64,000 bases of DNA from Candidatus Aegiribacteria sp. GTDB lineage: Bacteria; Fermentibacterota; Fermentibacteria; Fermentibacterales; JCC-6. Under the pieces are notes generated by a model that made no database searches, was not told the origin of the DNA, and worked only from the letters and a program-made list of their open reading frames with translations. Shown in pieces: positions 4,062 through 27,914 of this stretch. A program made the translations under genes and the position numbers. The DNA lies in NCBI GenBank assembly GCA_021108005.1, contig JAIORS010000191.1, positions 6,345-70,344 of the forward strand, written 5' to 3'. The stretch's first letter is position 1; each line of letters starts with the position of its first letter.

Positions 4062-5981
4062 ATGGGAAAAATAATAGGAATAGACCTTGGAACCACGAAT
4101 TCATGCGTGGCCGTTATGGAGGGCGGTGAGCCTACCGTAATACCCAACGCTGAAGGCGCGAGAACTACACCTTCGGTAGTAGCCTTCAATGACAAGGGTG
4201 AGAGGCTTGTAGGTGTTGTAGCCTACAGGCAGGCAGTGGCGAATCCCGAGAATACGATATTCTCGATAAAGAGATTCATGGGATGCAAGTACAACGAGAT
4301 GAAAAGTGAAATTGAAAGGGTTCCCTACAAGGTTATTGAGGGGAAGAACGGCGATGCCTGGGTGGAAATCATGGGCAAGAAGTACTCACCCCCGGAAATA
4401 TCCGCGATGATACTTCAGAAAATGAGGCAGACAGCCGAGGATTACCTGGGAGAGAAAGTAGAGAAAGCGGTTGTGACCGTTCCCGCGTATTTCAACGACA
4501 GTCAGAGGCAGGCCACCAAGGATGCCGGGAAAATAGCCGGTCTTGAAGTGGAAAGAATTGTAAACGAACCCACAGCGGCAGCTCTTGCCTACGGACTTGA
4601 CAAGGAATCCTCAAACAGGACTATCGCCGTATACGACCTCGGTGGAGGAACCTTTGATATATCAATACTGGAAATTGGTGACGGGGTTTTTGAGGTTAAA
4701 TCAACCAATGGAGATACTCACCTGGGTGGGGACGATTTCGACCATGCCATCATTAACTGGATGGTTGCCGAATTCAAGAAGCAGCAGGGCATCGATCTGT
4801 CCAATGACAAAATGGCCATTCAGAGGCTCAAGGAAGCTGCTGAAACAGCCAAATGCGAGCTTTCAACAACACAGAGCACCAATATCAACCTTCCTTTCGT
4901 CACGGCGGATTCAGCCGGGGCGAAGCATCTCGACATGACACTTACAAGATCAAAACTCGAACAGCTGGTTGATGACCTTGTAGAAAGAACAGTGGCTCCC
5001 TGTAGAACGGCATTGAAGGATGCCGGTATCGAGGCGTCAGCTATAGACGATGTTCTTCTGGTCGGTGGACAGACCCGGATGCCGCTTGTTCAGAGGAAGG
5101 TTACCGAGATATTCGGCAAGGAACCTCACAAAGGAGTCAACCCGGATGAAGTGGTTGCCGTTGGAGCAGCCATCCAGGCAGGTGTACTCTCAGGTGATGT
5201 CAAAGATGTCCTTCTTCTGGATGTTACTCCGCTTACACTTGGTATCGAAACCCTCGGCGGAGTGGCGACACCCATTATAGACAAAAACACAACTATACCT
5301 ACAAAGAAAAGCCAGATATTCAGTACCGCAGCTGACAGCCAGCCCCAGGTGGAGATCATCGTGCTTCAGGGCGAAAGAAAAATGGCGGCAGACAACAGGA
5401 CTGTTGGAAGATTCGTTCTTGACGGTATTCCACCTGCCCCCAGGGGAATGCCTCAGATAGAAGTAACGTTCGATATCGATGCTAACGGAATTCTTCACGT
5501 TTCAGCAAAGGATAAGGCTACCGGGAAGGAACAGAAGATCAAGATAGAAGCCTCCAGCGGACTATCCAAAGATGAAATAGAAAGTATGATTCATGACGCT
5601 GAAGCTCATGCAGATGAGGATGCTAAAAAGAAGGATATAATAGAAAGGCGCAATCAGGCCGATGCCATGGTTTTCGAAATCGAGAAACAGATGAAGGAAT
5701 ACGGAGACAAAATATCTTCAGATGACAGATCCAGGCTTGATGCTGCAGTTTCGGAAATGAAGAAGGCACTTGAGGGGGAAGATGACGATCTGATAAAGCA
5801 GAAGTCAGAGAGTCTTCAGGAAACCTGGAAGCAGTTCGGGGAAGCCTTCTACAAGCAGCAGCAGGCTCAGGAGCAGGATGCGGGACCAGCCGGACAGGCC
5901 GGAGAAACAACCGGAACAGCTGATGCCGGTGGAGATGAAGACAACACTGTTGACGCTGATTACGAAGTTGTTGATGACTGA
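4062..5981 (+). CDS. dnaK: Chaperone DnaK (Hsp70)
   Basis: [13 protein letters not shown]...DLGGGTFD...[11 protein letters not shown], full-length with acidic C-terminal tail. Confidence 0.97.
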
Positions 5982-6643: not shown

Positions 6644-7651
6644 GTGAATAAAGACCTCTACTCCATCCTGGGGGCTGACGAGAAAGCATCGCAGGAAGAA
6701 CTGAAGAAGTCTTACCGCAAGCTGGCCAAGAAGTATCATCCCGATGCGAACCCTGGAGATAAGAAAGCGGAAGAACGTTTCAAGGAAATCTCCGAAGCGT
6801 ACGATATTCTCGGCAGCAAAGAAAAAAGAGAACAGTACGATCAGATGCGGAGGGGCGGCGGAGACTTTTCGTGGGGTGAAGCCGGCGGTCAGAGAGGAAA
6901 TCCCTTTGGCGACGGCGGTTTAGCTGACATCCTTCGTTCGATGTTCGGTGGCGGTGGAGGCGGCGGAGGCGGCGGTTTCGGACAGAGGAGAGCCTCAAGA
7001 CCTACCGTTGTTGTATCTGTCCCGTTTAAAACTGCTGCCCTGGGAGGAACTGTCAGGGCTAATATGGAAGTGCCCTCCACATGTCCTGTATGCATGGGAG
7101 CAGGAGGCTCGGGAGAAGAACGCTGCAGCCAGTGCGGTGGTTCAGGCAGAATACAGCAGGGCCAGATGGTAATGCCCTGTCCGGCCTGTGGAGGTTCAGG
7201 CAGGACTTTCAAAAATAAATGTTCGAAGTGTCATGGAACCGGCGAAGTCATGTCTTCAGAAGTTGTTGACCTGAACATTCCCGCAGGATCAGATGACGGA
7301 TCAGTGCTGCGTCTCGCAACACCCTCCAGGAAGACAGTGATGGTAAAACTGAGGGTTAAGCCGGACAGTTTTTTCAGGAGAGACGGCAGGAACATTCACT
7401 GTACAGTGAAGATAAATGTTCCCCAGGCAGTTCTGGGCACGAAACTGAAAATACGTACTCTCGACGGCAAAATAGTACTTAAGATTCATCCTGGAACCCA
7501 GCCTGAAACGGTTCTGAGAATTCCAGGAAAGGGTGTTCCCTACAGAGGTACAAAGGGAGACCAGCTGGTTCATGTGGAGGTTACAGTACCAGAATCCGTA
7601 ACGGAAGAGGAAAAGGTTCTCTGGGAGAAACTTTCAGGGAAAAAAGCTTGA
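6644..7651 (+). CDS. dnaJ: Chaperone DnaJ
   Basis: GTG start. J domain with KKYHPD, Gly/Phe-rich region, four CxxCxGxG zinc-finger repeats. Confidence 0.93.
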
Positions 7652-7716
7652 CGCGGATACTCGAGCGTATTATTCCCTGTACAACGTTAATTTGAACAGA
7701 TAAGAAGGAGACTTTT

Positions 7717-22481: not shown

Positions 22482-23171
22482 ATGTATCTGGGATTTGTAG
22501 ACATGAACGCGGGTTTTCTTATTATCATCGCTGCGATGATAATTGGGCTCATAGCCCGATCGAAGGTTACCGGCACTTACAATAAGTTCAGCAGGATAAG
22601 TACTGGAAAGGGGCTATCCGGCGCAAGGATGGCCAGGGAAATTCTGGACAGCTACGGGCTTGCCAATATCGATATACAGGAGATCGGCGGCAGGCTTACC
22701 GATCATTACGATTCCCGGAACAGCGTACTGCGTCTTTCACAGAGTGTTTACAGTGGAACTTCGATCGCGTCAGTTGGCGTAGCAGCCCATGAAGCAGGGC
22801 ATGCCGTTCAGGACGCGATGGGCTACAGTCCTTTTCAGCTTCGTCAGAAACTGGTGCCTGTTGCAAACCTTGGTTCCCAGATGCTGTTTCCGCTGATAAT
22901 CGGCGGATTATTATTTCATATGACCTCACTATACTATATTGGAGCCGCGCTCTACGGGGCAGCCCTTCTTTTTCAGGTAGTGACGCTCCCTGTGGAATTT
23001 GATGCCAGCAAACGGGCGGTAGTCTATCTGCAGAAAAGCGGCAGCATGACTACGGAAGAGCTTTCCGGCGTTAAGAAGGTACTTGGCGCTGCAGCGATGA
23101 CATATGTAGCAGCCGCGCTTGCTTCCCTGGGTCAGATGATCTGGCTGTTGCTTGCCGGCAGGAGAAGATAA
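22482..23171 (+). CDS. Membrane zinc metallopeptidase, YugP-type (Zn_peptidase_2)
   Basis: N-terminal TM, HEAGHAVQ motif, C-terminal TM helices. Confidence 0.75.
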   Translation: MYLGFVDMNAGFLIIIAAMIIGLIARSKVTGTYNKFSRISTGKGLSGARMAREILDSYGLANIDIQEIGGRLTDHYDSRNSVLRLSQSVYSGTSIASVGVAAHEAGHAVQDAMGYSPFQLRQKLVPVANLGSQMLFPLIIGGLLFHMTSLYYIGAALYGAALLFQVVTLPVEFDASKRAVVYLQKSGSMTTEELSGVKKVLGAAAMTYVAAALASLGQMIWLLLAGRRR

Positions 23172-23803
23172 TGGGTATAGAAACTCCATTCATCATTGTT
23201 CTTGTATTCTTCAGCGTTGTATGTCATGAAATTGCCCACGGGTACGTTGCCCTTAAGCTGGGCGATCCCACCGCCTACAGGGCTGGAAGGCTGACATTCA
23301 ACCCTGTTTCGCACATCGATCCGATAGGAACGATAATGCTTCCCGCCCTGTTTCTTATAACCAACAGTCCCATCATGCTGGCATGGGCCAAGCCCGTACC
23401 GGTTAATCCGGGCTTTTTCAGAAATCCAAAGACAGGCATGATGTGGGTCGCGATTGCGGGACCGGCGACTAATTTTGCTATTGCTCTTGTACTTACACTG
23501 CTTCTCCATCTTCTGGGAAGCGCCATGCCTGCTATACTTATGCACAGCCTGGCAATGGCCGCGCTTATGAATATTGTGTTGATGGTTTTCAACCTCCTGC
23601 CCATTCCTCCACTTGACGGCAGCAGGATAGTGGCGAGGTTTCTCAACGGGCAGGCTCTGTACAACTATAGAAAGCTAGAGAGATTTGGTCTTTTCATAGT
23701 GTTCGGGCTGTTATGGCTGGGTGTTATTTCGAGTATTCTTTATCCCGCTCTGAACTTCGCTGTCCGCCATCTTGATCTTTACCAGTACCTCCCCCGTTTC
23801 TAG
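23171..23803 (+). CDS. Site-2 protease family (M50) membrane metallopeptidase
   Basis: HEIAHGYVA motif in a TM helix, LPIPPLDGSRIV second motif. Confidence 0.8.
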   Translation: MGIETPFIIVLVFFSVVCHEIAHGYVALKLGDPTAYRAGRLTFNPVSHIDPIGTIMLPALFLITNSPIMLAWAKPVPVNPGFFRNPKTGMMWVAIAGPATNFAIALVLTLLLHLLGSAMPAILMHSLAMAALMNIVLMVFNLLPIPPLDGSRIVARFLNGQALYNYRKLERFGLFIVFGLLWLGVISSILYPALNFAVRHLDLYQYLPRF

Positions 23804-24758
23804 GGTCAGGTCTTGCATCCGGGCATTATTATCGTATAATATACATATGACTAGACAATTACGCATTAAAATCCCTGGCGGACTGTATCATATTTACTCC
23901 CGTGGTATAGATCGGAGTGATATCTTCAAAGATAATAACGACAGGGACAAATTTCTGGAGATACTGCAGAACAGCATCAGTAATTCAGGCTGGAGGTGTT
24001 ATGCCTACTGTCTCATGAACAACCATTACCATATCCTGATAGAATCAGCAGATGGAGATACTTCTCGCGGAATGCATCAATTGAACAGTGTCTACGCCCA
24101 GTATTTTAACTGGAAGCATGAACGCGTGGGGCCACTCTTCCAGGGCAGATTCAGATCTATATTGGTTGACAGGGAGAATTACTTTTTGGAATTATGTAGG
24201 TATATAGTACTTAACCCGGTAAGGGCAGGAGCGGCGAAATCCCCTGAAGAGTATTATTGGAGCAGTTACAGAGTTACATCAGGACTTGATAATCAGGAAA
24301 CCTGCATCGATAGAGAGTTTGTGCTTTCCCGATTTGCCGGAGATAACGATTCAGACGCATCTGCAAGGGCTGCATATTCACAGTTTGTTTACGAAGGTCT
24401 TGACAAGGATTTTTCTCCATTTGAAATAAAGGGTGATTTGATTCTGGGAGACAGAAAATTTGTAGAATCCCTGAAGGAAGAAATCGAGAAGGAAAAAGAC
24501 AATACTGATTTTCCTAAGTTTCAGAGAACAGCGCATCGCCCAGATCTTGTGGAACTACTTGATCCCCTGACTGTTTCTTTAAGAGAGACGCGCAATGCGG
24601 CTGTGGGAGAAGCGTACAGTATATTCGGTTATACACAGAAAGAAATTGCAGGATTACTAGGTATTAATGTTTCAACTGTATATCGAATTCTAAAGAGTAT
24701 ATGATTATTAATAGTTAAAATAAAATGATAATAATGCCCGGATGCAAGACCTGACCCC
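23803..24758. mobile_element. RAYT/IS200-like element: single transposase gene bounded by perfect 30-bp terminal inverted repeats
   Basis: GGGTCAGGTCTTGCATCCGGGCATTATTAT at 23804-23833 and its exact reverse complement at 24728-24757. Inserted between the M50 stop codon and the RBS of the next gene. Confidence 0.7.
23847..24704 (+). CDS. REP-associated tyrosine transposase-like protein (IS200-like HuH domain + C-terminal DnaA-type HTH)
   Basis: GGLYHIYSRG, NNHYHILIE (HuH motif), EEYYWSSY tyrosine region, C-terminal GYTQKEIAGLLGINVSTVYRILK HTH. ORF track starts at 23772, but the ATG at 23847 gives the conserved N-terminus. Confidence 0.8.
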   Translation: MTRQLRIKIPGGLYHIYSRGIDRSDIFKDNNDRDKFLEILQNSISNSGWRCYAYCLMNNHYHILIESADGDTSRGMHQLNSVYAQYFNWKHERVGPLFQGRFRSILVDRENYFLELCRYIVLNPVRAGAAKSPEEYYWSSYRVTSGLDNQETCIDREFVLSRFAGDNDSDASARAAYSQFVYEGLDKDFSPFEIKGDLILGDRKFVESLKEEIEKEKDNTDFPKFQRTAHRPDLVELLDPLTVSLRETRNAAVGEAYSIFGYTQKEIAGLLGINVSTVYRILKSI

Positions 24759-24769
24759 AGGAGGCTATT

Positions 24770-26260
24770 TTGATTTTTTTGATGATTTTTCTTACTATTT
24801 CCGGTGATGTGTACGATGATACTCCTCTGACTATCAACCCTGATCCTTCATACGTTCAGGGAACTTACGAAGAATGGATGCAGGGCCAGCCTGAATATCA
24901 GCCTTTGCGCGTAACAACTATTGCCGGAACCGACGGAGCTGATTTTGTACTTATCTTCGAAGAAGGGCTTACAGACAGCCTTAATGCCGGGCTCCTTGAC
25001 CAGTGGACAGCGGATATCGCTTCACAGGGGCTATCATTTGAGGTAATAGAGGTTACTTACAGCACACCAGAGGATTTGAAATCGTACATTACATCCCAAT
25101 ATGCCGAAGGTCTTGAGGGAGCTGTACTCATAGGGAACCTTCCCGTCCCCTGGAGTGCTCTTGAAGACGCATACAAGCAGACCGGATCGGTTTTCCCCAG
25201 CGATTACTTTTACATGGATCTCGATGGTTACTGGGGAGATAACTGGATAGGGTATCCTTTCCTGAACAATCCCGGTCAGGATGGGAAGTACGATACCTTC
25301 AGCGGAAGCCTTGACCCTGAGATATATGTAGGGAGAATTAAAATTGATAATCTCTCGCAGGTTGGAGATCCCACCGAAATCCTGAATGATTACGTGGAGA
25401 GGAATCATGAATGGAGATTAAACGGAGATCCTGAACCCCTGAACGCTCTGTGTTATGTCGATGATGACTGGGCATACTTCGGTTCAGGATATCGGAATTC
25501 CATGCAGTACCTTTACCCTAATACAGAACTTGTAAACAACGAAGCTGCAACGAATGGTACCGATTATCTTGAAAACAAGCTTCCCGGGAACTACGTATGG
25601 ATAAGCCCATTTGTTCATTCAAATCCCGGAGGTCACTACTGGTCTCCCGGCCCTACAACGTTTTGGAATGATCTGGTTCCAGCCTTGCCCCAGGCTCATT
25701 TCTACAATCTGTTCGCCTGCTCTAACTGCCGATTCACTACCGTGCATTGCATGGGAGCGGTATACGCGTTCTGCACCTCAACTGGCCTGGCATCGATAGG
25801 CAGCACAAAAAGCGGTGCTATGCTGCACTTCACCCCTTTCTATTCACCCCTCGGTCTCGGAGAATCATTGGGAGAATCGTACCGTGACTGGTGGAGTTAC
25901 ATTACCATTGGTGGCTTTACTCCAAGTGAGATGTCATGGCATCTTGGAATGGTTCTGCTTGGTGATCCAACGTTGATACCTGCTATGCATATGCTTGGGA
26001 TTGAGGACGAGAGCAGCTACACCGACCTTGCGGAAATAGCGTTTTCCCGCAATCCATGTTGCGGGGTATTATCCGTTTCCTATCCGGCTGATCGTGGTGA
26101 TGTGGAAATATACGATACTTCGGGCAGACTTGTGGCTATCGGCAGAATTGAAGATTCTGCATGCACCATACAGGTTTCCTCGTTGAGCGCAGGCTGTTAC
26201 ATTGTCCGTGTTACTACGGATAGCACTACATCATCAGCGTCTGTCGTAATTCTTAAATAA
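24770..26260 (+). CDS. T9SS C-terminal-domain protein, possibly clan CD (C25/gingipain-like) cysteine peptidase
   Basis: AGGAGG RBS then TTG start. Candidate His (NPGGHYW) and Cys (NLFACSN) dyad. C-terminal ~70 aa T9SS sorting domain (CCGVLSVSYP...CYIVRVTTDS). N-terminal hydrophobic segment is short for a signal peptide. Confidence 0.45.
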   Translation: MIFLMIFLTISGDVYDDTPLTINPDPSYVQGTYEEWMQGQPEYQPLRVTTIAGTDGADFVLIFEEGLTDSLNAGLLDQWTADIASQGLSFEVIEVTYSTPEDLKSYITSQYAEGLEGAVLIGNLPVPWSALEDAYKQTGSVFPSDYFYMDLDGYWGDNWIGYPFLNNPGQDGKYDTFSGSLDPEIYVGRIKIDNLSQVGDPTEILNDYVERNHEWRLNGDPEPLNALCYVDDDWAYFGSGYRNSMQYLYPNTELVNNEAATNGTDYLENKLPGNYVWISPFVHSNPGGHYWSPGPTTFWNDLVPALPQAHFYNLFACSNCRFTTVHCMGAVYAFCTSTGLASIGSTKSGAMLHFTPFYSPLGLGESLGESYRDWWSYITIGGFTPSEMSWHLGMVLLGDPTLIPAMHMLGIEDESSYTDLAEIAFSRNPCCGVLSVSYPADRGDVEIYDTSGRLVAIGRIEDSACTIQVSSLSAGCYIVRVTTDSTTSSASVVILK

Positions 26261-26279
26261 TTCAGAAGTGATAAAAATG

Positions 26280-26304
26280 GGGGACATGCCGAACGCATGT
26301 CCCC
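26280..26304 (-). terminator. Rho-independent terminator between convergent genes
   Basis: GGGGACATGC-cgaac-GCATGTCCCC perfect 10-bp stem. On the minus strand it is followed by catttttat, so it mainly serves the 26313..27914 gene. Confidence 0.6.
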
Positions 26305-26312
26305 GAAAAAAT

Positions 26313-27914
26313 CTACAATTCAGTCCAAGTGCCCGGGTCTTCGGGCAATTTGTCCAGAATGTCTTCATTTATAACCATGCCGTACTTCTCTTCCAGTTCA
26401 CGTATGATATTTATCGTGGTCTGTTCCTCAAGTTTGTTTCTGGTCATTACATACAGCTCATCCTCAACCTCGTCGAAGTTTGCGTTTCGCTCAGGAACAA
26501 CTTCAATCAACCTGAATATGCACAGTTGGGTTCCGCTGTACAGTTCCAGAGGTCCCAGCCACGTGGTTGTGTCGGTGGGATCCATAAGGAAGACATCATT
26601 ACCATGATAACCGGGAACATCACCGAGTAACAACGGTCTGGTTATCTGAGGGTGAGCTGAATCAGCAGCAAGGTTTTCGAACCCCGGCAATTGAAGATGG
26701 TACTGTTCTCTTTCATCGGTGGTCATTTGACGGTATACATCTATAGAATCGCCGGGCATATGAGCAGCCTGCAGAATCCTCTTTTCGGGAATGGTCAATG
26801 GCTCCTCCAGGTTTTCGAAAAGGTACTCCATATCTTCCTGCGTAACATTCACGGTTGATTGAATTCGATCTTCGTAAAACAGATCGGATGCCATATCAAG
26901 GAGGTTTTTCTCCGACTCAGCGTAAAGAGAATCAATGATTTCGGGAGATTCACTTTCAAGGATACCACGGCAGTAACTGTTGTAATGAAGGAATTCAACA
27001 AAAACAAATATCCAGTTCACATCGGTAGGATCTACCGAATATCGGTTCCGGTAGTACGAAATTTCATTCTTCAGATCAAGGGCAGTCCAGCTGCCCAGAT
27101 CTGATTCCAGTATAACGATCTCGTCAGCCGGAGGCTCAGCTTCCTCTACGTAGTAGAGCCTTAACTGCTGCAGTGCGGTTGAGTCCAAATTCATGTTGTA
27201 ATCAGTCTGAATAGACAGCTTGAGATTGTCTTCTGTCTCCTGAAATCTTCTGTTTGCGATTGCATTCGCGGCATCAGATCGAACAGCAGCCGTATCTGCA
27301 AGAGCCCGGGCAATACGAGATGAATCTGCAGTTACTGCTGAATCGAGCCTGACTTCGATTCCACTGAGAGTAATACCGCTTTCCCCTATGTCCAGCGTAT
27401 CAATAAGTTTGGCCATCTCCGCTGGGAGTTCCGGAAGATGAACCGGACCGGTAACTTCCTCTGTATCACTGCCGGGATTCACTGTAAATAGGACTGTTCT
27501 ACCCAGATGACCTACGAAGAAATCTATCTCATCTTCACCAACATTTTCCAGTTCTATCTCGAAAAGAGATCTCCTTGCGGCTTCGCCGCACTTCTGATTC
27601 ATCCATGCGCTTCTGTATGCTAGCAGAAAAGCATCATCCATATATCCCGCTGCCTCAAGCTCGTTCTCCAGAAGAGCCTTTCTACCACGGGTAACAATGT
27701 ATTCACCGACGGTGTTGTTCTTCGATATGAACAGTTCTCTCTGGTTGTCATTCATGCTGTTCCAGGTTTCTCCGGCATCACCAACAGTAAGTGTGTCTTC
27801 CCCAATAGCTATCAACCATGTAGTGCTGTCGACCCTGGTTCCCGAGCATCCACTTAAAAACGCGAGGACAATTAACGTAATAAACACTATTGCTGATGTG
27901 TTAATGAACTTCAA
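26313..27914 (-). CDS. Hypothetical lipoprotein, possibly SurA/PpiD-like periplasmic chaperone without a PPIase domain
   Basis: Signal peptide plus LSGCS lipobox. Only weak resemblance to SurA N-domain helices. Confidence 0.35.
   Translation of the reverse strand: MKFINTSAIVFITLIVLAFLSGCSGTRVDSTTWLIAIGEDTLTVGDAGETWNSMNDNQRELFISKNNTVGEYIVTRGRKALLENELEAAGYMDDAFLLAYRSAWMNQKCGEAARRSLFEIELENVGEDEIDFFVGHLGRTVLFTVNPGSDTEEVTGPVHLPELPAEMAKLIDTLDIGESGITLSGIEVRLDSAVTADSSRIARALADTAAVRSDAANAIANRRFQETEDNLKLSIQTDYNMNLDSTALQQLRLYYVEEAEPPADEIVILESDLGSWTALDLKNEISYYRNRYSVDPTDVNWIFVFVEFLHYNSYCRGILESESPEIIDSLYAESEKNLLDMASDLFYEDRIQSTVNVTQEDMEYLFENLEEPLTIPEKRILQAAHMPGDSIDVYRQMTTDEREQYHLQLPGFENLAADSAHPQITRPLLLGDVPGYHGNDVFLMDPTDTTTWLGPLELYSGTQLCIFRLIEVVPERNANFDEVEDELYVMTRNKLEEQTTINIIRELEEKYGMVINEDILDKLPEDPGTWTEL

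Follow-up and report, generated by a model that had tools for sequence, protein, structure and literature searches.

A probable TIRtron of Candidatus Aegiribacteria (Fermentibacterota), anciently inserted between an M50 protease gene and a T9SS cargo gene

A RAYT-like gene flanked by TIRs has been described as a TIRYT or TIRtron, and in the majority type the TIRs share the motif GGGGWSAS, whose distance to the ORF is constant (Di Nocera, De Gregorio & Rocco 2013, PMC3733652). Most TIRYTs belong to subclass 2.1 of TnpA-Y1, which is characterized by HTH_23, HTH_28 or Bac_DnaA_C tails and a Ser motif after the Tyr, and for which no REPs were found. Subclass 2.1 or TIRYT proteins are present in about 15% of sequenced strains (Quentin 2018, PMC6006769). 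The motif Y---NP is the class-2 signature of TnpA-Y1, and class-2 enzymes have been proposed to benefit the host in some unknown way.

The window is the whole 64-kb stretch of DNA analyzed here. According to the sequence and the ORF list, its positions 23803-24757 form a 955-bp unit made of one gene and two 30-nt inverted arms. This unit is probably a TIRtron: a TIRYT gene (TnpA-Y1 class 2, subclass 2.1) with its cognate 30-nt TIRs. The TIRYT characters found at the locus were HUH together with Y---NP, long TIRs whose arms do not fold by themselves, an end of the GGGGWSAS type, and HTH_23 with WSS. The features are as follows.

23171..23803, forward strand: site-2 protease gene (Peptidase_M50), the upstream flank, from Pfam and the ORF list.
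23803..23832, forward strand: TIR-L, exact 30-nt arm, with a conserved core of 16 nt, GGGTCAGGTCTTGCAT, at its outer end.
23813..23840, forward strand: putative promoter in TIR-L, read by eye (TTGCAT at 23813-18, 16 nt, TATAAT at 23835-40, 6 nt to the ATG).
23847..24704, forward strand: TIRYT gene of 285 aa, ATG to stop, the sole gene between the arms.
24728..24757, reverse strand: TIR-R, exact reverse complement of TIR-L.
24759..26260, forward strand: downstream flank, with the SD AGGAGG (24759-64) and a Peptidase_C25-like T9SS cargo gene from a TTG at 24770 to 26260.

The 64-kb window had exactly two copies of the 30-mer GGGTCAGGTCTTGCATCCGGGCATTATTAT, one at 23803-23832 (+) and one at 24728-24757 (-), and no match was expected by chance in shuffled sequences even at 3 mismatches. 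The initial annotation had reported an exact 30-nt inverted repeat around a single gene, and this was borne out; its left arm, placed at 23804-23833, was off by one base. With imperfect matches included, the repeat reaches 41 nt (23800-23840 / 24720-24760, 90% complementary), and the inner extension reads TTTTAT at TIR-R vs TATAAT at TIR-L. As had been stated, the first base of TIR-L is the final base of the M50 stop codon TAG (23801-23803), with TA immediately outside, and the right arm ends 1 nt before AGGAGG: the arm end at 24757 is followed by C at 24758, AGGAGG at 24759-24764 and the TTG start at 24770. The two neighbors also match their earlier description as an M50 protease and a T9SS cargo protein, with Peptidase_M50 upstream and a Por_Secre_tail (T9SS) domain on the Peptidase_C25 protein downstream. 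The ATG-started 285-aa protein has the same length and sequence as the database protein P0001. A 310-aa TTG-started ORF in the window was rejected as a mechanical upstream extension of the 285-aa gene.

The TIRYT protein consists of an N-terminal Y1 HUH nuclease domain (about residues 1-145; Pfam Y1_Tnp, 1.1e-10), a helical linker and a C-terminal HTH (about residues 245-283, nt 24579-24695; Pfam HTH_23, 1.6e-6). The HYH motif and the Tyr region that had been pointed out were both present, as H60-Y61-H62 (nt 24024-24032) and CRY119IVLNP (Y---NP), in which Tyr119 (codon 24201-24203) is the predicted catalytic residue. A WSS motif lies at residues 138-140. H60, H62, E66, Y119, N123, P124 and W138-S-S were invariant in 41 relatives (family alignment A1), and 34 of these relatives matched HTH_23. 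Other Pfam HTH matches of the protein were Sigma70_r4_2 and HTH_28, and PDB profile matches of the HTH were of the DeoR, NtrC/Fis and LacI types. Bac_DnaA_C (PF08299) was absent from the Pfam matches of the protein at E <= 0.01 and was not among the 25 most frequent Pfam families of the 41 relatives. Thus, the first designation of this tail as a DnaA-type HTH was unsupported.

A single-sequence phmmer search against PDB sequences returned nothing relevant, and a profile search was needed. This search found TnpA-REP (4ER8) at E 2e-4, with Y119 aligned to the catalytic Y115. The AF2 model of the protein (pLDDT 92.7) had 4ER8 as its best Foldseek match (E 6.8e-8, TMt 0.73), with ISDra2 and IS608 TnpA below it. 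The NCBIfam model REP_Tyr_transpos (NF047646) gave 76.1 bits and just missed the cut-off of 80. Rfam and PHROGs searches gave nothing meaningful. The Y---NP motif, 4ER8 as the best match in sequence and fold, and the 76 bits for NF047646 set the protein apart from an ordinary IS200 TnpA and support a RAYT-like identity. Sequence and model together mark it as a class-2 RAYT-like enzyme, in which a single-strand HUH/Tyr nuclease is joined to a helix-turn-helix at the C-terminus.

The element end reads AGGGTCAG, which agrees with GGGGWSAS at 7 of 8 positions and starts with AGGG, not GGGG. The relatives L112, L008, L114 and L115 read GGGGTCxx at the outer end of the TIR. In the window element the ATG follows 44 nt after the arm start. 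Eleven elements from Fermentibacterota, WOR-3 and Pseudomonadota were compared, and in 9 of them the distance from the first G to the ATG was 44-47 nt. At 5 of 6 loci with this core, both arms carried GGGTCAGGTCTTGCAT unchanged despite dS values of 1.1-3.2; at the sixth, L004, the left arm has one T-to-C change. The deepest orthologue, L112, carries a variant core. Across the 11 elements, 90.4% of arm positions were complementary and 22 of 34 positions had changed on both sides. This complementarity was reached by 0 of 500 shuffles, and slid controls gave 32-45%. As judged from these alignments, selection acts on both arms, and they co-vary among relatives. The paralogues L008, L112, L114 and L115 carry their own matching TIR variants. 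These matching variants and the constant TIR-to-ATG geometry in different phyla tie the ends to the Y1 gene. The TA flanks are not universal in the family, with deviations in L008, L114 and L115.

These observations bear on the explanation that the locus is an ordinary IS200/IS605 element, or else a TIR element moved by another, TA-duplicating DDE transposase with the Y1 gene as a passenger. The Pfam domain name 'Transposase IS200 like' would agree with the former, and TIRs with TA on both sides, which are typical of cut-and-paste DDE elements (IS630/Tc1-mariner), with the latter. However, the protein has Y---NP and not the class-1 Tyr motif, it is 285 aa long with an HTH, subterminal hairpins are missing, no tnpB was present among the window neighbors, and the IS200/IS608 structures rank below TnpA-REP. 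A foreign DDE enzyme is opposed by the fixed TIR-to-ATG geometry and the paralogue-specific TIRs, and no DDE gene was found nearby in the window or in the relatives' loci. Either version is hardly credible.

Single arms folded at only -1.8 to -3.8 kcal/mol, with z values of -0.6 to -2.0 vs shuffles, and no GTAG-tagged palindrome or GTAG-hairpin was found at the arms of the window element. Further arm copies were absent from the 64-kb window, also when 3 mismatches or a degenerate pattern were allowed, and from 175 kb of related Fermentibacterota DNA. The proposal that the arms are inverted REP copies was not supported, as neither arm folds alone and neither of these two DNA sets had another copy. 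A small TGC...GCA hairpin or GCAT direct repeat in each arm was also considered and rejected, because the stem has 3 bp, the fold is not significant and the feature is not general among paralogues.

A canonical REPtron, in which a RAYT lies between two inverted members of a REP/REPIN family found throughout the genome, would explain the RAYT-like fold and motifs, the REP_Tyr_transpos score just under 80, a gene that is single-copy and vertically inherited like RAYTs, and the REPIN-like hairpin doublets that the core forms in other phyla. It is nevertheless very unlikely, given arms without a significant hairpin or GTAG-tagged palindrome, no extra copy in either DNA set, and a long HTH tail of subclass 2.1, the subclass for which no REPs were found.

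The history of the TIRtron was compared among related loci. In three relatives, L117 (Aegiribacteria MLS_C), L118 and L119, the site was empty: neither a Y1 gene nor a TIR came after M50. In L119, the SD and the start of the C25 gene come directly after the M50 stop codon. Occupied orthologous sites (M50, Y1, C25) were found in L001, L004, L006, L007 and L112, six with the window. Because three relatives have an empty junction, the element is an insertion between the M50 gene and the cargo gene, as the initial annotation had proposed. The identity of Y1 to the window protein was 92, 71, 70, 62 and 50% in L001, L004, L006, L007 and L112, and that of DUF2334 was 79, 67, 64, 51 and 51%, respectively. 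The divergence of Y1 tracks that of its neighbors DUF2334 and a 533-aa gene, the dN/dS of the TIRYT gene was 0.06-0.14 among orthologues, and the window holds a single copy of the Y1 gene. The insertion is not recent, since the element occupies this site in genomes whose neighboring proteins are only 44-55% identical.

Comparison of these loci indicates a single ancient insertion at the M50 stop codon, inside the M50-C25 operon junction, followed by vertical inheritance as a single copy under purifying selection. The insertion point would be the TA of the M50 stop codon TAG. On the same evidence, M50 and the C25 gene were operon partners ancestrally, and the 955-bp element now stands between them. 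It had been suggested that expression of the cargo gene may depend on read-out from the element, but the simplest reading of the AGGAGG by the right arm is that it already served as the SD of the M50-C25 junction before the insertion. The cargo protein does begin with a short hydrophobic stretch, described as a weak signal peptide; it is ancestral, as the empty sites have it too.

A close copy, L003 of assembly GCA_030594645.1, was 76% identical and nested among the orthologues, and it is located between an ABC-3 gene and an Mg-chelatase gene. It has the same TIRs, with TA on both sides, and is the only relocation seen. Because this copy lies at a different locus in another MAG, the TIR-gene-TIR unit has moved. 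In both insertion events seen, removal of one TA restores the stop codon of the neighboring gene, which suggests either TA duplication or insertion 3' of a TA by an element with TA at its own right end. The empty site predicted at the ABC-3/Mg-chelatase junction would read ...TCAATTACAGGTAAGCC..., with a TAA stop for the chelatase. L001 is without the C25 gene; an element-mediated adjacent deletion was rejected there, as the deletion begins 8 nt outside TIR-R, after AGGAGGC. The contigs L002 and L005, which end exactly at the TIRs, were also rejected as evidence for multiple copies, because a perfect inverted repeat of at least 31 nt would itself break de Bruijn assemblies.

The layout TTGNAT-N16-TATRAT-N6-ATG was kept in L001, L003, L004, L006, L007 and L112. 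A consensus promoter scan did not call TTGCAT-N16-TATAAT, in which TTGCAT matches TTGACA at 3 of 6 positions. No SD was found ahead of the TIRYT ATG, and no terminator-like site between 23600 and 24950. TIR-L probably contains the promoter of the gene, giving a leaderless or near-leaderless mRNA. With a leaderless mRNA of its own, the gene would not be translated from transcripts that run in from M50. Transcription through the element would then also cover the C25 gene.

The overlap of TIR-L with the putative promoter would also suit a fully domesticated host gene, with no transposition in the lineage and with arms that serve a host function as operators or binding sites (e.g., HTH autoregulation or single-strand DNA processing at replication forks). 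The long stay at one locus, the divergence that tracks the neighbors, the dN/dS of about 0.1, the lack of dispersed copies in the DNA searched, and the host benefit proposed for class-2 enzymes are consistent with such a gene. In contrast, the HUH and Tyr residues are invariant, both arms are symmetric over 30 nt, whereas a promoter-operator role would not need the distal arm in this form, and L003 shows that the whole unit moved within the clade. We consider domestication unlikely, and it overlaps with the TIRtron explanation rather than excluding it.

The 16-nt end GGGTCAGGTCTTGCAT recurs in unrelated phyla, where it bounds short gene-less hairpin doublets. GGGTCAGGTCTTGCATNNNNNGCA was scanned in genome and metagenome contig collections, and the matches there included neither the source contig nor any Aegiribacteria locus. 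Convergent core pairs 40-190 bp apart were found at 8 of 24 genome loci, 5 of 22 metagenome loci and 3 of 55 IMG/VR loci, and these doublets fold at -24 to -31 kcal/mol. The 55 matches of the 16-mer in the viral collection (IMG/VR) are near chance by a rough estimate from collection size, except for L099, L101 and L109, and this collection contained no relative of the TIRYT protein. Several GC-rich single matches were set aside as gene starts (ATGCAAGACCTGACC encodes MQDLT). Some doublets or MITEs with the end sequence in other phyla flank toxin-antitoxin cassettes. A literature search for 12- to 15-mer strings of the TIR end found no relevant paper.

No biochemical study of a TIRYT came up in the literature searched, and binding, cleavage site and strand are therefore all inferred here. 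At each end, the enzyme would recognize the outer core (TA)GGGTCAGGTCTTGCAT, which is conserved. It may do so in duplex form through the HTH, or else the arms might pair within one strand into a hairpin or panhandle, following REPIN logic. Cutting and rejoining would occur at the TA next to the first G via a 5'-phosphotyrosine on Tyr119. The relocated copy L003 and the gene-less doublets of other phyla lend indirect support to an action of the protein on its TIR and to mobilization of TIR-bounded DNA. To our knowledge, the HUH Y1 enzymes characterized so far act on one strand, with hairpins in direct orientation. Inverted ends put the recognized sequence on opposite strands, so that the mechanism cannot be simply copied from IS608 or TnpA-REP.

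A broader proposal is tentative, and we hold it to be more doubtful than probable. TIRYTs might be HUH enzymes that have swapped hairpin recognition for long HTH-read ends, or that act on the foot of a two-end hairpin, with a 14-16-nt end (TA)GGGTCAGGTCTTG(C)AT essentially frozen across phyla. In Aegiribacteria, the element would then be a host-maintained, leaderless gene with its promoter in the TIR, kept at one locus over deep divergence, a persistent RAYT/REPIN-like symbiont, and the doublets and MITEs of other phyla would be non-autonomous partners.

The locus provides a natural series of three empty sites, six occupied orthologous sites over deep divergence and one relocated copy, together with a sharply defined candidate substrate, TA + GGGTCAGGTCTTGCAT. 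The series and the candidate substrate form a basis for binding, cleavage and mobilization assays on TIRYTs. The locus also indicates that TIRYTs can persist vertically like RAYTs. The picture of what TIRYT elements are is unchanged by it.

Among the known systems, IS630/Tc1-mariner elements and MITEs resemble this element in having TIRs flanked by TA and short TIR-bounded non-autonomous derivatives. They differ in their DDE transposase; here there is none, and the TIRs co-vary with the Y1 gene. The TnpA proteins of IS200/IS605 (IS608 and ISDra2) share the HUH Y1 fold and chemistry, and insertion beside a short specific sequence without the need for a DDE enzyme. However, these class-1 proteins have about 130-150 aa and a different Tyr motif, and their elements are often accompanied by tnpB, are multicopy, and end in subterminal hairpins in direct orientation without TIRs, whereas the window element has TIRs.

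TnpA-REP of E. coli (RAYT, PDB 4ER8) is the closest solved structure and sequence, with the same layout of HUH, Tyr in Y---NP and Asn. The REPtron/REPIN system is also similar in its single-copy, vertically inherited gene flanked by inverted copies of its substrate, and in short inverted doublets as presumed non-autonomous partners. RAYTs differ in having about 165 aa and no HTH, compared to 285 aa with an HTH in the window protein. Their substrates, of which there are tens to hundreds of copies, are imperfect hairpins of 20-40 nt tagged with GTAG at the 5' end, whereas the arms in the window do not fold alone and had no dispersed copies in the 64-kb window or the 175 kb of related DNA.

The published TIRYT/TIRtron is the system most like this locus: a Y1 HUH protein longer than RAYTs with a C-terminal HTH, long TIRs instead of REP hairpins, an end fitting GGGGWSAS at a constant distance from the ORF, and a low intragenomic copy number. 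In some genomes, the TIRs of that system also occur as single, dimeric or clustered repeats. Nothing essential differs here; the motif starts with AGGG instead of GGGG. The class itself is already described, and the comparative history (empty sites, relocation and dN/dS) and the extent of the 16-nt core are added detail on it. What is new is the host lineage, Candidatus Aegiribacteria of the Fermentibacterota.

The window contained just two exact copies of the 30-mer GGGTCAGGTCTTGCATCCGGGCATTATTAT, one at 23803-23832 (+) and the other at 24728-24757 (-), and dinucleotide shuffles yielded no match to it even with three mismatches tolerated. The exact 30-nt pair of the initial annotation was confirmed, with its left-arm coordinates corrected by one base, and the repeat extended imperfectly to a total of 41 nt. 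Both junctions had been placed correctly, the left arm starting at the last base of the M50 protease stop codon and the right arm ending 1 nt ahead of the downstream ribosome-binding site. The locus was arranged as follows:

23803-23832, + strand: left terminal inverted repeat (TIR-L), starting on the G of TAG, the stop codon of M50 (23801-23803)
23847-24704, + strand: Y1 transposase gene, starting at ATG, 285 aa, the sole gene enclosed by the TIRs
24728-24757, - strand: right repeat (TIR-R), reverse complement of TIR-L, one base from AGGAGG (24759-64)
24770 onward, + strand: C25/T9SS cargo gene, start TTG, preceded by AGGAGG

The 285-aa protein was identical to an annotated protein of a Candidatus Aegiribacteria MAG, and a scan of the window found no second Y1 gene. 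The element (23803-24757) had 41% G+C; the window as a whole had 47.7% and the two neighbours 48-49%, a difference that persists despite long residence at the site.

Pfam matched the Y1 protein to Y1_Tnp (residues 14-120, E 1e-10) and, at the C-terminus, to HTH_23 (residues 245-283, E 1.6e-6), with sigma-70 region 4 and HTH_28 as weaker matches. The DnaA-type HTH suggested previously was unsupported, as Bac_DnaA_C had no match in the protein; this family was also absent from the 25 most frequent Pfam families among 41 relatives (43-92% identity to the window protein), 34 of which matched HTH_23. The alignment of these relatives was invariant at H60 and H62 (HUH), E66, Y119, N123 and P124 (motif CRYIVLNPV), and W138-S-S. 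Class 2 (TnpA-REP-like) Y1 enzymes have Y---NP as their published signature (PMC6006769). The family profile, compared to PDB sequences, matched a single transposase, E. coli TnpA-REP 4ER8 (E 2e-4), and paired Y119 with Y115, the catalytic tyrosine according to the 4ER8 structure paper. The top Foldseek match of the AlphaFold model (pLDDT 92.7) was again 4ER8 (E 6.8e-8, target TM 0.73), with the ISDra2, IS608 and IS200 transposases ranking lower. The NCBIfam model for REP-associated tyrosine transposases gave 76.1 bits, slightly under its cut-off of 80. Given the Y---NP motif and 4ER8 as the best profile and structural match, the enzyme is RAYT-like rather than an ordinary IS200 TnpA, as first proposed.

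The Y1 gene was present at the same site in five other assemblies (L001, L004, L006, L007, and L112), within the shared gene order GT4, DUF2334, Zn-peptidase, M50 / Y1 / C25-T9SS, 533-aa gene, methylmalonyl-CoA mutase. Y1 identity to the window was 92, 71, 70, 62, and 50%, respectively, and that of DUF2334 was 79, 67, 64, 51, and 51%; the 533-aa gene gave 62% in L004, 50% in L007, and 44% in L112, with no value for L001 and L006. Thus, Y1 diverges in parallel with its neighbours. The dN/dS values were 0.06-0.14 for Y1, 0.03-0.07 for M50, and 0.15-0.23 for DUF2334, with dS mostly >1, and the Y1 gene is under purifying selection.

Three more distant relatives lacked the element and any trace of a TIR. 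In L117 (Aegiribacteria MLS_C, M50 82% identical), M50 was followed by 121 bp and C25; in L118, M50 was followed by a 5' remnant of C25 only; in L119 (Fermentibacteria), the M50 stop was directly joined to the Shine-Dalgarno sequence (SD) and start of C25. These empty sites demonstrate that the element is an insertion between M50 and the cargo gene, as previously read. The insertion is ancient, was made into an operon junction, and has been vertically inherited since. At the empty sites, too, the cargo protein has a short hydrophobic N-terminus, and this feature therefore does not stem from the insertion. Excising the element from L001 together with one TA gave TTCTAGGAGGC, in which the M50 TAG stop overlaps the AGGAGG SD; this overlap accounts for the position of the right arm next to the SD.

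The closest relative, L001, has lost the entire C25/T9SS cargo gene (L001:6911-6935 versus window 24758-26322). The deletion begins 8 nt to the right of TIR-R, following AGGAGGC, and extends into the final two codons of the 533-aa gene, which now stops at a TAG on the TIR-R edge. C25 was also absent from L112. The 533-aa gene (window 26313-27914, - strand) adjoins the locus, is conserved and syntenic in all relatives, and had no Pfam match at E <= 0.001.

One relocation has occurred in the clade. The L003 copy is 76% identical and falls within the orthologue group (dN of 0.13 to L004), and its surroundings differ, with an ABC-3 permease gene on one side and a Mg-chelatase gene on the other. 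The left arm contributes the final seven codons of the permease ORF, and the right arm adjoins the chelatase stop codon. TA was found at both ends of the element, and removal of the element with one TA restored the TAA stop of the chelatase. The L001 and L003 reconstructions therefore place both insertions seen in the clade at a stop-codon TA. The sequence is compatible with duplication of TA and with insertion 3' of TA by an element carrying TA at its right end; the latter would be in IS608 style.

The window, L001, L003, L006, and L007 had the same outer 16 nt in each arm, and L004 differed by one T-to-C change in the left arm only; this end was kept despite saturated synonymous sites. Matched variants of their own were carried by both arms of the deepest orthologue, L112 (GGGGTCAAACCTTGTAT), and of paralogues or distant relatives, namely L008 (GGGGTCGTATCTTGAAT) and L114 and L115 (GGGGTCAGGTCTTGAT). 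In L018 (Pseudomonadota MAG, protein 39% identical), the right arms equalled the window core and the left arm had one change (TTGCAA). Across 11 elements, 90.4% of arm positions were complementary and both sides had changed at 22 of 34 positions; none of 500 shuffles scored as high, and register-shifted arms were 32-45% complementary. The arms are selected and co-evolving, with concerted change between elements. Since the counted arms had been chosen as inverted repeats, the test addresses concerted change, the cause of which may be pairing or recognition by a common protein. In other Aegiribacteria MAGs (L008, L009, and L010), a second TIRYT, paralogue P0033 (48% identical), occupies another conserved locus, with polysaccharide synthesis genes on one side and a response regulator and hydrogenase on the other. 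This paralogue is flanked by a perfect 24-nt TIR of its own, and the organism group therefore contains several TIRYT lineages, each having private ends.

Genome, metagenome, and viral (IMG/VR) collections were scanned for the end core, and no Aegiribacteria were among the loci returned. The core GGGTCAGGTCTTGCAT (15-16 nt) recurred in unrelated phyla as convergent pairs 40-190 bp apart. The hosts were three Salinisphaera species, Thiohalobacter, Methylobacter, two Actinomycetes MAGs, a Gaiellaceae MAG, and several metagenome contigs, with the pairs distributed as follows:

Genome contigs: L013, L015, L022, L025, L026, L028, L029, L030
Metagenome: L037, L044, L047, L048, L050
IMG/VR: L099, L101 (12 core copies on a 7.4-kb contig), L109

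The doublets folded as long hairpins (-24 to -31 kcal/mol, with z near -11 in the two short doublets). Within the 8 kb fetched, a full Y1 gene was present in L018 only. Such gene-less doublets agree with the single, dimeric, or clustered repeats reported for some TIR families (Di Nocera et al. 2013, PMC3733652). Across 175 kb of DNA from Fermentibacterota, TIR-type motifs were confined to the two flanking each Y1 gene, with no doublets, which excludes high-density dispersal and is still compatible with low density.

Other arrangements were also observed. Two direct copies of a ~190-bp TIR-bounded MITE surround a RelE-like/Xre-HTH toxin-antitoxin pair (L048:718-1851), and a BrnT/CopG-antitoxin pair lies between two 58-nt direct repeats beginning with the core (L049:2091-3370); these cassettes may be carried or captured by the repeats. 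L018 has three tandem right-end cores 3' of the gene (7565-7660; ATGCAAGACCTGACCCTATCC about every 30 nt) and an N-run whose flanks are duplicated, which probably reflects a scaffolding artefact.

We propose (TA)GGGTCAGGTCTTGCAT as the recognition sequence of the enzyme at either end, where Tyr119 would cut or join DNA beside the first G. Because inverted ends place the recognised strand on opposite strands, two options arise. In one, the ends would be duplex and the HTH would place the nuclease on them; in the other, the arms of one strand would pair, as proposed for REPINs, with the enzyme acting at the foot of a panhandle (gene-bearing unit) or a hairpin (doublets). TIR-L probably contains a promoter, judged from the layout TTGCAT-N16-TATAAT-N6-ATG, which is conserved without an SD in L001, L003, L004, L006, L007, and L112; a consensus promoter scan did not call it. 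A leaderless message would stop M50 read-through transcripts from yielding transposase by translation. No terminator-like site was found by scanning the element, and C25 is therefore plausibly co-transcribed through it. L007 has ~75 extra bp between TIR-L and ATG (4813-4932), including a second layout, TTGCAG-N16-TATGAT-N6-ATG; the 265-aa gene predicted for it in the database begins too far downstream, since the in-frame ATG at 4932 gives the full-length protein.

The arms had been read as inverted REP copies. This reading was not upheld, as single arms folded as ssDNA were indistinguishable from shuffles (-1.8 to -3.8 kcal/mol, z -0.6 to -2.0) and no further copies, exact or degenerate, were found within the 64-kb window. 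RAYT-like genes between long terminal inverted repeats have been described as TIRtrons encoding TIRYTs, with GGGGWSAS at a constant ORF distance common to many TIRs (Di Nocera et al. 2013, PMC3733652). Most TIRYTs were placed in TnpA-Y1 subclass 2.1, characterized by a C-terminal Bac_DnaA_C, HTH_23 or HTH_28, a Ser motif, and the lack of REPs (Quentin et al. 2018, PMC6006769). The arm start AGGGTCAG matches 7 of 8 positions of GGGGWSAS, and the conserved end (15-16 nt) is much longer than this published 8-nt motif. The first G of TIR-L lies 44 nt from the ATG, and the distance was 44-47 nt in 9 of 11 family members examined. All defining features of TIRYTs and TIRtrons that can be tested in silico were found, and the element is a member of this class, for which our literature search returned no experimental study. 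It would work in the manner of a REPtron, yet it is not one, nor is it an IS200/IS605 insertion sequence; the locus is an ordinary, if well-resolved, example of the TIRYT/TIRtron class.
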